Below are positions 11,996-17,343 of a DNA stretch of 64,000 nucleotides, piece after piece (within the stretch, counting starts at the first letter, position 1; each line of letters begins with the position of its first letter). Origin of the DNA: a bacterium (GTDB lineage Bacteria; Patescibacteriota; UBA1384; CAILIB01); assembly GCA_037131105.1 (NCBI GenBank), contig JBAXRQ010000001.1:322039-386038 (forward strand). The letters run 5' to 3'. The notes under the pieces are model-generated. The model made no database searches. It saw only the letters and a list, made by a program, of their open reading frames with translations, and was not told the origin of the DNA. The position numbers and the translations under genes were made by a program.

Positions 11996-12080
11996 GGCTG
12001 CCCTCAAAAACCATTGAGACGTATTCCGAAGGAATACTGTTAGACAGGCTCCCTTGAGTCGAAGGTTTTTGAGGGCAGCC
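11996..12080. repeat. perfect 17-bp inverted repeat (ggctgccctcaaaaacc / ggtttttgagggcagcc) with ~50-nt loop containing an inner 7-bp hairpin, immediately 3' of uvrB
   Basis: Read directly from the sequence. The right arm abuts the uvrB stop codon. Confidence 0.6.
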
Positions 12081-15000
12081 TATGACTCGAGTTCTCGGAT
12101 TTGGTCTCTGAGCTTAGCTGCCCCCTCATAATCCAAGTGTAATGCGGCCTGGGCCATCTTGTCGCGCAGCTCTTCCAGATAGAACTTCTTCTCCATGGGC
12201 TTCAGCCGGTTGTACATGGCCTTCTCCTCGGCAACAGTAAGAGTCTCGTGGCTAGGTAAGGCGATAGTAATTGGCTTGTTCAGCAGCTGAGGCACGATTC
12301 CGTGCTCCACGTTATAAGCCTTCTGAATGGTGCGGCGGCGGTCGGTCTCATCGATAGCTCGACGCATGGAGCCGGTGATGTTGTTGGCGTACATGATGAC
12401 TCGTCCCTGGGGGTGGCGGGCGGCCCGGCCGATGGTCTGAATAAGTGAGGTCTCTGAGCGCAGGAAGCCTTCCTTGTCAGCGTCCAGTATGGCGATAAGG
12501 CTCACTTCGGGTAGATCCAGACCCTCGCGCAGCAGGTTGATACCCACCAGTACGTCATAGGTGCCTAGGCGCAGGTCCTGAAGGATCTGGGAGCGGTCCA
12601 AGGTCTTTACGTCGGAGTGCAGGTACTGGACCTTGATGTTTCGGTCCTGCAGGTACTCGGTGATGTCCTCGGCCATGCGCTTGGTGAGGGTAGTGACCAG
12701 GGTGCGCTCGTGTCGCTCGATGCGTATTGCGATTTCCTTGAGAAGGTCGTCTATCTGCCCGTCGATGGGCCGTATCTCGATCTCCGGGTCGGGGATGCCA
12801 GTAGGACGAATTAATAGCTGGGCTACCAGATCCACCTTCTTATCTTTTTCCAGACGGGTCTCCTGGGTCTCTACTTTTACCTTCTCCAGTTCGTACTTGC
12901 CAGGGGTAGCCGACACATAGACTGCCTGGCCGCGGCGCTCCTCAAACTCAGCAAAGGTCAGGGGGCGGTTGTCTTTGGCACCCTTCAGGCGGAAACCATA
13001 GTCCACCAGGGTATTCTTGCGGGCCTGGTCGCCGTTGTACATGCCGCCGATCTGAGGGATGGTCATATGTGACTCATCCACAAACAGTAGGAAATCGTCC
13101 GGGAAATAGTCCAACAGTACCGACGGGGGAGTGCCGGGCGCGCGCCGGTCAAAGTAGCGCGAATAGTTCTCGATGCCGGAGCAAGATCCGGTCTCGCGAA
13201 TCATTTCCAGGTCGAAGGTGACCCGCTGCTTCAGCCTTTGGGCTTCTAGCAGCTTGCCGTGGGCTTCGAAGTCAGCCACCTCGGCTCGCATGTCCCGTTC
13301 AATCTCGGCTAGGATCTCTGGGCGGGCGGTCTCTTCGGTCAGGAAGTGCTTGGCGGGAAATATCTCCACCTCGTCCACGCTCTCCAGTGACTTCTGGGTG
13401 ATGGGATCTATGAGATCAATACTCTCCACCTCGTCGCCAAACTGTACTATCCTGATCTGGTAATCCTCATAAGCCGGAAAGATGGTGATGGTGTCACCCT
13501 GCACCCGGTAGCGGCCGCGGGAGAGATCAATGTCATTTCGCTCATACTGCACATCGGCCAGCTTTCGGGTGAACTGGCGCTGAGGCAGCTGCTCGCCCTT
13601 CTTTACCGTGATATTGGCAAGGCGATAAACGTCAGGAGAGCCCAGACCGTAGATGCAGGAGACCGATGCAACGATGATGGTGTCCCGACGGGTAAGTATG
13701 GAGTGGGTGGAGGCGTGCCGGAACTTCTCGATCTCCTCGTTAATGGCCGAGTCCTTCTCGATGTAGGTGTCGGTCATCGGGATGTAGGCCTCCGGCTGGT
13801 AGTAGTCGTAGTAGGAGACGAAGTACTGGACGGCATTATCCGGGAAGAATTCCCTGAATTCGGCAAAGAGCTGGGCGGCCAGGGTCTTGTTGTGGGCCAT
13901 GACAAGGGTTGGGCGCTGCAGCCGCTCGATGGCATTAGCCATGATGAAGGTATTGTGAACAAAGAGCCCTCCCCGTCCTGTCATAAAGGTCTCAAGTCCA
14001 GGTACGCTAAAATCATACACATACGGGTGTAAAGGTTTTGTCGGTTCGCAAGATGCTATTGGGGACCAGTGAAGCCTGGTTAGTCCCAAGAGTTCTTCGT
14101 CCTTAACGTCTAGAGAGGCGCATATACGCTCAAAAAGTGTCCGAGAAGGATTTCGAATGCCTACTTCGATAGCTGAGATCATGGTGCGGGTGCATCCTGC
14201 TTTTAGGGCGACATCGCGTTGGAGGAGTCCTGCTTCCTGTCGTAATGTCAGGAGTCGCTTTCCTACTCCATACACCAGGTCAACATTGGTGTTCCCTGAC
14301 TTAATCTGCCTGAGAAGTGCGGCTGATTTTCTCGGGCTAATAAAGCCTATCTTGTATGCGAAAGCTCTAAGGTTGTCCTGCCCGCTAATGGTTATCAGAT
14401 GATACATACCACGAGTTCCATCTGGTTTTAGCTTGCTTACCGGCCTGAACCGTGCCCATATGCCAAACCGTAACAGTGCCTCGGCTATATCACTGGCTAG
14501 TTCCGGGCTAAGGGTTACGGCGGTTACGGCCCCCTTTTCAACTCCACCATCTCCCTCAAAGTAGGCAGAAAGAAGCTTGGCTAGGAACTTATTGGAAAAA
14601 GAGGGCCATAAGCTCGGTAGGCGCTTGTTATGGGCATGGGTGCCCATGTGGCTAGATAGTAGGTCTCTCCAAGAACGAATCCCGATTCTATAGTCACCTG
14701 TTTCTTGGAGCCCGAACGGGATGTTCAGCTCCTTGAGGCATCTCCCTACCTCGGCATGGACATAAGGGTCACGAACAGTAATCTGGGAGCCTCCTATAGA
14801 ACAATGGCCCTCAGCGATATACTGGCCAAAAATAGTGGCAACGGCTGGCGTAAGCGGAAGTGTCACAGGCTCGCTATGGATCTTGCCCTTCAGGCTAATC
14901 TCAAAAGGTTTAACAATGTTGCAGGCCAGAAGCTGCCTGGCAGCGGAGAGGTGTACTCCTTCATTAAAGCGGACAACCCGGTATGCTTTGGCATTAGGAT

Positions 15001-15631
15001 GTTCATAATGCCCTGCCAATATGTGGGCAAGGATAGGCTGAGAACGTACTGCCCCACGGAGCTGCACTCCTACGTTTTCAGAGGTGATCTCGTCAATGAG
15101 GTTCAGTGCGGTTAAGGGTCGCGGGGGTTCTGGCAGTAAAGCTGGTACTGGCAGCGCATCAGTTTCTCTGACTTGGCTTCCTTCAACAAGGCAAAGATGT
15201 CCGTCACGTAGTACCCAGACGCTATGGTCACCAGTTACGGTCACGGTTCTACCGCAGCTGGTTGTCAGCCTAAATAACTGGTCAGGAGAGGCGTGGCGGC
15301 TAAGTACGCTGATTTGCTCCCAACTGGTTTTACCAGTCTTAACATCCCAGGACATAACTTCCCATGTACGAGATGGGGCAACTGCGGCTGATTCGTTTTG
15401 TCGGAAGCCTTTTAGGTGTTGGTCGATAAGAAGTCCGATTGGTCCACGATAGGGACGTCCGTCGATACGCACTGTAACTGGTTCATCCCAGGCTACGCTC
15501 TTTCCCGTTCCTGTGGCTCCTAGCAGTACCTGAGACTGGGCTCCGGCCTCGACATTATTCACTATCTGTTCGATAGCGCTAGGTTGGTCGCCGTCGGGTG
15601 TGAAAGGAGCCTTTAGGTTAAAGCGCTTCAT
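12080..15631 (-). CDS. uvrB: excinuclease ABC subunit B containing a 516-aa intein (1183-aa precursor; mature UvrB ~667 aa)
   Basis: N-extein ...LLGATGTGK is interrupted after the Walker-A lysine. C-extein resumes [56 protein letters not shown]... and continues through the UvrB helicase motifs to a UvrC-binding C-terminus. AGGAGG RBS. Confidence 0.9.
13952..15499 (-). mobile_element. UvrB intein (Ser1 ... His-Asn/Thr+1) carrying a LAGLIDADG homing endonuclease and an embedded XRE-type HTH
   Basis: Begins [14 protein letters not shown]... and ends ...GGLFVHN followed by +1 Thr. LAGLIDADG-like blocks [12 protein letters not shown] and [12 protein letters not shown]. Cro/C1-type HTH ...[36 protein letters not shown]. 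Confidence 0.8.
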
Positions 15632-16004
15632 ATGCCTCCTTAATCTGGTCTAGCTTGTCTATCGGAATAATGGCGGCAGCGTAGCAGTCGATGTCAGTAT
15701 CGCCGGTGGACTCGGAGAAGCATACCGGTATCTTCTGGGCCAGGCAGTAACCCAGCTCGATCTTCACGCTGGTGCCCATGTAGCCTTCGGGAAGGATAAA
15801 GTAGGCTGCGTCAGCCTGTTCGGCCGCCTCATAGTGCTCCATGGCCAGGCGCAGCTTGTGGGCTGCGTCCAGGGCCTGATCGGTATTGCCGACCTCCAGG
15901 TCTAAGTTTGGGAATAGGGGAGTGATGCCCAGCTTCTCAAGAGCCGACATAGTGGCAGCTATCTTGCCTCTAAACTTGACGCTGGCGCAGACCAATACCT
16001 TCAT
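15618..16004 (-). CDS. nucleoside 2-deoxyribosyltransferase-like protein (128 aa)
   Basis: [11 protein letters not shown]...[26 protein letters not shown] resembles the Rossmann-like deoxyribosyltransferase family signature (GT.FELGYA..GKPV). 14-nt overlap with the uvrB start (coupled). Confidence 0.45.
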
Positions 16005-16128
16005 ATGCTGTGTTTTCTGGAAGTGTGAATACCTTATGCATAGGTCAATATACCAGAAAGTGGCAGGGAGAGCAGCACAGGGTGGCGTGGGCGCACTATT
16101 GCTGGTACAACGGGTGAAGGGGGTAACT

Positions 16129-16581
16129 ATGGATGAAAACCTTGTGAGTGTCGATGCTATTATTGCCGCTGCTCAGGCAATGAGCAGCATTCCTGATGGC
16201 GAAGGCATGCCACTGGATAGGGCTGCTTATGCCGCGAGGGCCTATCAACGGGAAAGTGGACTTGATGAGCTACTTGAAAAGGTTGATGGTCAGCTTATTG
16301 AGCCAGATAGGGGGCGAGCCTTAGAGGCGGTTGCCGGGGCGATTCCGGTTAGTGCTTTGTTGGCCAACAGCTACTGGGGGATCAAGCCCTCATATGTCAC
16401 GTTTTTTGTTGGACAGTTGGGTGAGGAGGAGGCTTGCCTTCGGCTCAATGAGATGTGGCGTGCCTATTCTGGTGACGATTTGCCTCTCGTATTGGGAAAG
16501 GAGGAAGGAGGAGAACATTGGGGTGCTTATCCGGAGCAATACAAAGAGATGTATTGTGAAATATATGGCTTCAGCCTGTAA
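16129..16581 (+). CDS. hypothetical protein (150 aa)
   Basis: Internal ATG (MDENLVSV...) preceded by a GAAGGGGG RBS. The longer ORF from 15886 would overlap the opposite-strand gene. Confidence 0.45.
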   Translation: MDENLVSVDAIIAAAQAMSSIPDGEGMPLDRAAYAARAYQRESGLDELLEKVDGQLIEPDRGRALEAVAGAIPVSALLANSYWGIKPSYVTFFVGQLGEEEACLRLNEMWRAYSGDDLPLVLGKEEGGEHWGAYPEQYKEMYCEIYGFSL

Positions 16582-16623
16582 TAGGCGCGAAGCTTTGGGG
16601 GAGTCGGATGTCCGGCTCCTCTT

Positions 16624-17343
16624 TTATATAGATTCCTCGAGTGAGTTTTTGGATAGCTCGGTGGTGCGCTGCTTGGCCTGGGCTTGGCGCCACTTTGCGA
16701 TCTCGGCATGGTGGCCGGAAAGCAGGATATCCGGTACGGTCTGGCCCTTGTATTCAAGCGGTCGGGTGTAATGGGGATACTCCACCAAGGGTTTGCCAGC
16801 TTCATCGAGGATGGAAAAGCTTTCTTCCTCAGGAGACTCCTTGCGGATGACTTCAGGAAGTAGACGGGCAATAGCGTCTACGACCATAAGAGCTGGTAGT
16901 TCACCGCCGGTCAGTACAAAGTCGCCTATGGAGAGCTGGGCATCTACCAAGGAGCGGATCCTTTCATCAAAGCCCTCGTAGTGTCCGCATATGAGGGTAA
17001 TCTGGTCGTACTGCTCGGCAGCGTACCTGACCCGGGGTTGGGTGAGGCGTTTGCCCTGGGGGGTCATCAGGATGCTGCGGCGTCGCTCAGCCGGGATAGC
17101 CGCCACCTCGGGGATTTCCAGTACCTTGTGCAGGGCGGCATCGAGGATGTCCACCTTGAGCACCATGCCAGCACCGCCGCCGTACGGGGTGTCATCGACG
17201 CTCTTATGGGTGTCGGTGGCCACTTCGCGGATATCATGGAGGTGCACCTCAACTAAGCCGGCCGCCTGGGCCCGCTTAAGAATCGAGGCCTCCAAGGGGC
17301 CGCGCAGCATTTCCGGGAACAGAGTGAGGATATCGAATCGCAT
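16624..17343 (-). CDS. trmD: tRNA (guanine37-N1)-methyltransferase
   Basis: [12 protein letters not shown]...[12 protein letters not shown]...[12 protein letters not shown], canonical TrmD SPOUT motifs. Confidence 0.9.

Follow-up and report, generated by a model that had tools for sequence, protein, structure and literature searches.

The interrupted uvrB gene

We analysed a stretch of 64,000 nucleotides (the window) from a member of the Patescibacteriota (assembly GCA_037131105.1, contig JBAXRQ010000001.1, positions 322,039 to 386,038), in which the gene for the excinuclease subunit UvrB carries, inside its ATP-binding loop, a long insert with the features of an intein. The gene lies on the reverse strand, as do all features below unless stated otherwise, and forms a single open reading frame (ORF) of 1183 codons plus stop (12080..15631), in which Pfam recognises UvrB_inter, Helicase_C, UvrB and UVR together with intein domains. 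Direct reading of the sequence finds a Shine-Dalgarno-like AAGGAGG (15635..15641) four nucleotides 5' of the ATG (15629-15631), which may act in translation of the gene. The gene order around it, KH-trmD-uvrB-L25-thrS, is conserved in relatives.

The first 44 residues of the precursor, encoded at 15500..15631, form the N-terminal extein and close with LLGATGTGK, whose GATGTGK is the beginning of the Walker-A motif. Residues 45-560 are the insert, 516 codons at 13952..15499 that open with SVAWDEP and close with GGLFVHN. The next residue, Thr+1 (ACC, 13949-13951), is the Thr of the Walker-A GKT; it is followed by FIMANAIE, and with it begins the usual UvrB continuation, the C-terminal extein (12080..13951), which supplies residues 45-667 of the mature protein. 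The original prediction had placed a 516-residue insert at exactly these coordinates, and its placement is correct to the base; translation likewise bears out the extein break after GATGTGK and the resumption at TFIMANAI that it had described.

When the insert is removed in silico, a colinear UvrB of 667 residues is left, which matches the NCBIfam equivalog models from end to end (NF003673, 994 bits against a cut-off of 743, model positions 1-651 of 653; TIGR00631, 966 bits against 750) and has the length of the nearest intein-free orthologues. This match, which starts at model position 1, supports the N-extein assignment made by translation, and together with the reading of the junction it defines the C-extein. 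The empty site reconstituted in the same way runs from GTACTGCTAGGAGCCACAGGAACGGGAAAG directly into ACCTTCATCATGGCTAATGCCATCGAGCGG, with the intein position at the boundary of the two.

The two ends of the insert make up a HINT splicing domain. Its N-terminal part (residues 1-130 of the intein, in whose numbering we continue; 15110..15499) contains block A, SVAWDEP with Ser1 (15479-15499), and block B, TGDH with Thr89 and His92 (15212-15241), both read from the sequence; it has a predicted beta-rich fold and sequence matches in the PDB to PI-PkoII and to the TFIIB, CDC21 and PolII mini-inteins. The C-terminal segment (residues 476-516, 13952..14074) has the invariant Asp496 of block F and His515-Asn516 of block G and aligns with the C-termini of the PI-PkoII and TFIIB inteins. 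The Pfam model Intein_splicing matches at 39.0 bits (cut-off 35.8), with the match split across both ends of the insert, and TIGR01445 (intein_Nterm) at 27.6 bits (cut-off 24.5). Ser1, a T-x-x-H in block B, the Asp of block F, a His-Asn end, Thr+1 and a HINT fold and profile are the marks of a class-1 intein, and all are present. On this sequence, profile and fold evidence we identify the insert as an intein in the Walker-A P-loop of UvrB, between Lys44 and Thr, as the original prediction had it.

The remaining modules follow one another in an order given by Pfam coordinates and the structural model: a LAGLIDADG domain at residues 218-402, a helix-turn-helix (HTH) domain at 403-475, and then the C-terminal HINT segment. 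The LAGLIDADG homing-endonuclease domain (14294..14848), identified by Pfam, conservation and Foldseek, has a first motif with Glu230 (14804-14833) and a second with Asp317 (14543-14575), both recognised by reading and by conservation, and a conserved Lys292 (within 14615-14632); LAGLIDADG_3 scores 52.0 bits over residues 305-385 against a cut-off of 22.5. The domain that comes after it (14075..14293) is of the XRE/Cro-C1 type. It includes an NTNVD linker conserved in the family (14279-14293), N-terminal to the HTH proper, and a match to HTH_3 (residues 418-470, 14090-14248) at 40.1 bits against 23, with HTH_31 at 35.8 against 27. Sequence and profile matches of this segment in the PDB are to C.BclI, DBP48, C.AhdI, SinR, 434 Cro and P22 C2. 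Both LAGLIDADG blocks and the Cro/C1-type HTH had been read from the sequence before, and both hold up.

An AlphaFold2 model of the intein, built from 13 sequences, has a mean predicted local distance difference test (pLDDT) score of 91.5 and a predicted template modelling score of 0.90. In the model the HTH region consists of helices 413-422, 427-434, 438-445, 453-462 and 468-475 (pLDDT 91-97), a compact five-helix bundle with a helix 2-turn-helix 3 (14159-14221), as expected of an XRE/HTH_3 domain. The model also contains a confidently predicted alpha/beta sub-domain between the N-terminal HINT part and the endonuclease (residues 131-217, 14849..15109; pLDDT 77-91 in the full model and 89.4 when modelled alone). 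This sub-domain is the least conserved region of the family, with a mean top-residue frequency of 0.40, and when it was searched alone against PDB folds no match was obtained at E<1. A search of the 64-kb window for further inteins of this type found only the one in uvrB.

Recurrence, conservation and probable mobility

We scanned one genome per species with the intein alignment as query, and found 388 loci that encode relatives of the window intein. The best 80 of these 388 are all uvrB genes, all interrupted at the same position. In 75 of the 80 both junctions lie in one frame, with G-x-T-G-x-G-K before the Ser and H-N before the Thr; the inserts in these are 514-564 residues long, and Thr follows the HN in every one (75/75). 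The same uvrB site is occupied across about ten phyla, in a patchy distribution that takes in Armatimonadota, Deinococcota, Chloroflexota, Rhodothermales/Bacteroidota, Gammaproteobacteria (many of them Steroidobacteraceae), Acidobacteriota, several lineages of Patescibacteria, Omnitrophota and a planctomycete (Planctomycetota). The carriers among the Deinococcota include the isolates Deinococcus murrayi DSM 11303, D. phoenicis and D. arenicola. Deinococcus spp. NW-56, RL and SM5_A1 also have a UvrB intein.

The window comes from a metagenome assembly, and a sequencing or assembly error, which the original prediction had itself named as what would overturn it, could be put forward to account for the insert, as could an insertion domain that does not splice. 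The frame is uninterrupted, though, and canonical splice junctions delimit the insert at both ends to the exact residue. The precursor is identical to NCBI MEI6477702.1 ('MAG: excinuclease ABC subunit UvrB [bacterium]'), a record from a contig of 949 kb, the same protein being recorded on two contigs. Moreover, homologues at the same site occur in 75 other genomes, those of Deinococcus isolates included, and such recurrence across independent assemblies excludes an artefact. We therefore regard the chance that the insert is an artefact or a non-splicing domain as negligible.

The 76 UvrB inteins that we aligned to measure conservation, 33-53% identical to the window intein, share their catalytic residues almost without exception. 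Ser1, His92, Glu230, Lys292, Asp496, His515 and Asn516 are invariant (76/76), so that the splice-junction residues Ser1 and His-Asn that had been pointed out in the window, together with Thr+1, stand on family-wide evidence; Asp317 is present in 75 of the 76, one member having Asn at this second catalytic position, and Thr89 is at least 90% conserved. Because these residues are invariant or nearly so, splicing and endonuclease activity both appear to be under selection across the family. The HTH region is conserved to about the same degree as the N-terminal HINT part (mean top-residue frequency 0.52 versus 0.51), and Pfam detects HTH_3 in 71 and HTH_31 in 70 of the 76.

The relationships of the intein follow those of its host protein only loosely. 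The window intein is nearest to the group from Armatimonadota and Deinococcota (46-53% identity), while the window exteins are only 55-58% identical to those of intein-bearing genomes, which does not place the host among these; identity to the window intein is only weakly coupled to identity to the window exteins (r = 0.42). Among the matches listed, the best extein relatives (66-78% identical, 662-692 residues) are all intein-free, and the nearest named one is an intein-free UvrB from a 'Patescibacteria group bacterium' at 77% identity. In the three extein relatives that we examined (76-78% identical) the order KH protein-trmD-uvrB-small ORF-L25-thrS is shared, and their empty sites match the reconstituted window site at 41-42 of 60 nucleotides, with 17-19 of the central 24 identical. 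In Deinococcus, intein-bearing UvrB proteins of 1193-1195 residues fall within 90%-identity clusters of intein-free UvrB of 671 residues, which include those of D. radiodurans, D. wulumuqiensis and D. apachensis, and the UvrB of D. planocerae, also intein-free, falls in these clusters too; by sequence comparison, then, the Deinococcus UvrB intein is a presence/absence polymorphism among close relatives. We suggest that the UvrB intein is mobile by homing, because its catalytic residues are intact, its distribution is patchy and empty sites exist.

In codon composition the intein is foreign to its loci throughout the family. The GC content at third codon positions (GC3) in the window is 0.47 for the intein, 0.74 for the C-extein and 0.67 +/- 0.09 for the long ORFs of the window, and at 63 of 64 uvrB loci the GC3 of the intein lies below that of the C-extein (mean difference -0.17, standard deviation 0.09), whatever the GC content of the host. 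Low GC3 was considered as a mark of recent transfer of the window intein and was dropped, since the property is family-wide.

It could be argued that the element is fixed and decaying, with splicing kept, the endonuclease dead and the HTH a functionless relic. Such an intein would still splice, because UvrB function requires splicing, and it would represent an expected late stage of the homing cycle under the model described in PMC8966425; one family member does have Asn at the second catalytic position, and endonuclease activity is not readable from sequence. The window copy, however, keeps both catalytic acidic residues and Lys292, each conserved in 75-76 of 76 members that are only 33-53% identical to it, and its HTH is as conserved as the splicing domain. 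In addition, empty target sites persist in close relatives, and therefore opportunities for homing exist. We thus think it unlikely that the window intein has entered decay.

Known inteins and the proposed role of the helix-turn-helix domain

When the model was compared with the PDB by Foldseek, solved endonuclease-containing inteins came out on top, ahead of mini-inteins and of free-standing LAGLIDADG enzymes, I-DmoI for example. The best match was PI-TkoII (2cw7; E 1e-25, template modelling (TM) score 0.70). The TliVMA intein (7qss) had a TM-score of 0.66 on the query and 0.77 on the target, and further matches were to PI-PfuI (1dq3), the PhoVMA intein (7qst), I-Tsp061I and the Hedgehog Hint domain (1at0). 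By global superposition, the query TM-score was 0.56 for the TliVMA intein with its accessory domain deleted (7qsu), as compared with 0.66 for the full 7qss.

PI-TkoII (also PI-PkoII), from the DNA polymerase of Thermococcus kodakarensis, is the closest known relative both by sequence (profile E 4.6e-51) and by fold. It shares the order of modules, namely an N-terminal HINT part, an extra domain, a two-motif LAGLIDADG endonuclease, an HTH-like accessory domain (PMC8966425) and a C-terminal HINT segment. It differs in being archaeal, in its host, a family-B polymerase rather than a P-loop protein, and in having only 17% overall identity to the window intein; its accessory region does not align to the HTH_3 profile region, and the window sub-domain 131-217, searched alone, gave no match to it. 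The TliVMA and PhoVMA inteins of the VMA-b site resemble the window intein in their insertion in an ATPase P-loop and in their combination of HINT, LAGLIDADG and an accessory domain before the C-terminal HINT segment. However, they have an archaeal V-ATPase as host, Cys1 chemistry (the crystallised forms are C1A), a shorter overall length and an unstructured linker in place of sub-domain 131-217, and their accessory domain is HTH-like by structure only, whereas that of the UvrB intein is recognisable from sequence as XRE/HTH_3. PI-SceI, the yeast VMA1 intein, is likewise a bifunctional LAGLIDADG intein with an extra DNA-binding region beyond the endonuclease saddle, but this region is an insertion within the HINT domain and not between the endonuclease and the C-terminal HINT segment (PMC8966425), and PI-SceI as a whole superposes poorly with the window intein (TM 0.34-0.39, root-mean-square deviation about 25 A). 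As regards the insertion site, the survey by Novikova et al. 2016 (PMC4760082) presents P-loops as a recognised intein hotspot, with the DnaB-b, MCM-a and RFC-a inteins inserted at the Walker-A motif of replication and repair ATPases with the P-loop Ser or Thr as +1 nucleophile, as in UvrB; these differ from the window intein in their hosts, and UvrB falls outside the top 15 intein hosts given there.

Crystal structures have revealed accessory domains that follow the endonuclease and precede the C-terminal HINT segment; those of the TliVMA intein and PI-TkoII are HTH-like, and deletion or exchange of the TliVMA accessory domain altered DNA binding and the choice of cleavage site (PMC8966425). 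The HTH of the UvrB intein lies where Beyer et al. 2022 place such domains. Because it occupies the accessory-domain position of PI-TkoII, PI-PfuI and the TliVMA intein, it is reasonable to infer that it may provide DNA targeting. What is specific to the UvrB intein, as judged from its sequence, is that the accessory domain is a recognisable, natural and conserved member of the XRE family. A 434-repressor domain had been grafted artificially into an intein studied earlier (PMC8966425), whereas a domain of that family occurs naturally here.

Taken together, we consider it very probable that the insert is a class-1 bifunctional intein, capable of both splicing and homing, between the Lys and the Thr of the UvrB Walker-A GKT, with the HTH as its accessory domain. 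Translation would yield a precursor of 1183 residues that has 516 foreign residues within its ATP-binding loop and would presumably be unable to bind ATP, so that it is reasonable to suppose that UvrB is inactive before splicing. The HINT domain, through Ser1, Thr89/His92, Asp496, His515-Asn516 and Thr+1, would excise itself via ester intermediates and cyclisation of Asn516, with joining of the exteins, to give a normal UvrB of 667 residues and a free intein of 516; we expect splicing because the splice motifs are intact and conserved. The free intein would then act as a monomeric two-motif LAGLIDADG endonuclease that cuts intein-free uvrB at the sequence encoding the P-loop, and repair by recombination from the intein-bearing copy would spread the element. 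In this scheme the XRE-type HTH would serve as a tethered module for DNA binding, extending or adjusting the contact with DNA flanking the cleavage site, as suggested by where it lies, by how well it is conserved and by the experiments on the TliVMA intein (PMC8966425).

Two observations count against this reading. First, the solved accessory domains of PI-TkoII and the TliVMA intein show no sequence-profile alignment with the window HTH, so that the case for their equivalence is one of chain position and of superposition of the structures as a whole. Second, the GC3 deficit, being family-wide, does not date the acquisition of the window intein.

A domesticated intein would offer another role for the HTH: the free intein could serve as an XRE-type transcription factor, or conditional splicing, in response to DNA or damage for example, could switch nucleotide excision repair. 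Conditional splicing is known for inteins of repair proteins, and the P-loop position would probably bar ATP binding by the unspliced precursor. Moreover, HTH_3 is typically a repressor domain, and the best PDB sequence matches of the window HTH are controllers of restriction-modification systems, SinR and phage repressors. WhiA provides a precedent, in that a LAGLIDADG scaffold is followed there by an HTH that drives DNA binding in a transcription factor (PMC3240954). WhiA, however, is a free-standing protein that lacks a splicing domain, its LAGLIDADG part has no catalytic activity and it has another type of HTH, whereas the window intein retains intact endonuclease catalytic residues. A function for the host is also difficult to reconcile with presence and absence of the intein within 90%-identity UvrB clusters, and with closest extein relatives of this host that, as listed, are all intein-free. 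A search upstream of the window uvrB for an operator-like inverted repeat found none, and the Ser1/Thr+1 chemistry offers no redox handle. A regulatory function for the window intein consequently seems to us quite improbable, and we retain the bifunctional intein with an accessory HTH as the best account of the data.

Related inteins in other hosts and neighbouring DNA

The original prediction had called an HTH within a homing-endonuclease intein unusual, and this is the one point on which our results disagree with it. The domain is present in 71 of the 76 UvrB inteins, and it is found well beyond them. When 1.84 billion cluster representatives were searched exhaustively, 2381 relatives were obtained at E <= 1e-3, and a hidden Markov model of the HTH region matches 64 of the 159 best representatives among these. 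Pfam HTH_3 or HTH_31 lies C-terminal to LAGLIDADG in inteins of several other hosts, namely HerA-like ATPases, an actin-like protein, a T2SSE/VirB11-like ATPase and haloarchaeal MCM, the last with a duplicated HTH. Many of the related MCM inteins, which carry the same HTH module, close with HN followed by SQLL, that is, at the P-loop site between GK and S. HTH-like accessory domains of inteins had, in any case, already been described from crystal structures.

Our literature searches found no description of a UvrB intein or of an XRE/HTH_3 domain in an intein; listing in the supplementary tables of the 2016 survey is possible. The window intein is thus an apparently unpublished P-loop LAGLIDADG intein with an accessory DNA-binding domain, from a family that is widespread in public genomes. 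In part this is a matter of annotation, since the intein goes unremarked in public UvrB records: proteins of 1180-1200 residues are named 'excinuclease ABC subunit UvrB', 'hypothetical protein' or 'helix-turn-helix domain-containing protein', and of the database names returned only one, the JGI name 'intein/homing endonuclease', mentions an intein. Intein-bearing, cultivable Deinococcus and intein-free species occur in the same 90%-identity clusters, and so the part that accessory domains play in homing specificity and site switching becomes experimentally approachable. The UvrB intein family may also be a source of new meganuclease scaffolds.

Beyer et al. 2022 proposed that inteins capture accessory domains from transcription factors (PMC8966425). 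It is conceivable that the XRE-type HTH allowed one intein lineage to hop between the P-loop sequences of UvrB, MCM, HerA-like, VirB4/VirB11-like and actin-like proteins, the tethered HTH relaxing or redirecting the target choice of the LAGLIDADG endonuclease as those authors propose for accessory domains. In a bolder variant of this idea the free intein may double as a repressor. We consider site-hopping of this kind rather doubtful, though less so than either decay or domestication of the intein; were it to be true, the UvrB family would be a natural, testable case of transcription-factor domain capture driving intein site-hopping.

The accessory regions of the related inteins vary considerably. 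Haloarchaeal MCM inteins (P0047, P0088) and a HerA-like intein (P0061) have either two HTH copies or an HTH accompanied by one of a second type, HTH_23; these modules follow the LAGLIDADG domain and precede the C-terminal splice junction, and some of these accessory regions exceed 200 residues. VirB4/TraC-like ATPases, mostly from Patescibacteria (P0013, P0031, P0049, P0055, P0060), have related LAGLIDADG inteins at the P-loop site between GK and S, in which a helical region of 200-300 residues replaces the compact HTH between the NTNVD linker and the C-terminal junction; for one of them, P0013, there is no HTH match among the precomputed Pfam hits. A protein of 1002 residues with at least 10 tandem XRE-type HTH repeats (P0131) was recovered through the HTH segment alone and is not intein-related. 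The same overall intein architecture is also common in viral proteins, such as the RNA polymerases of giant viruses and the helicases and terminases of phages (TM up to 0.69).

Upstream of the window uvrB, about 1 kb (15632-16623) separates the gene from trmD (16624-17343), which in the intein-free relatives that share the gene order (L082, L083 and L084) overlaps the start of uvrB. The additional DNA contains an ORF of 128 residues (15618-16004) that shares 14 nucleotides with the start of uvrB, with a match to Nuc_deoxyrib_tr that stays below threshold (20.3 bits, cut-off 28.8), and, on the opposite strand, an ORF of 150 residues (16129-16581) for which Pfam gave no match.

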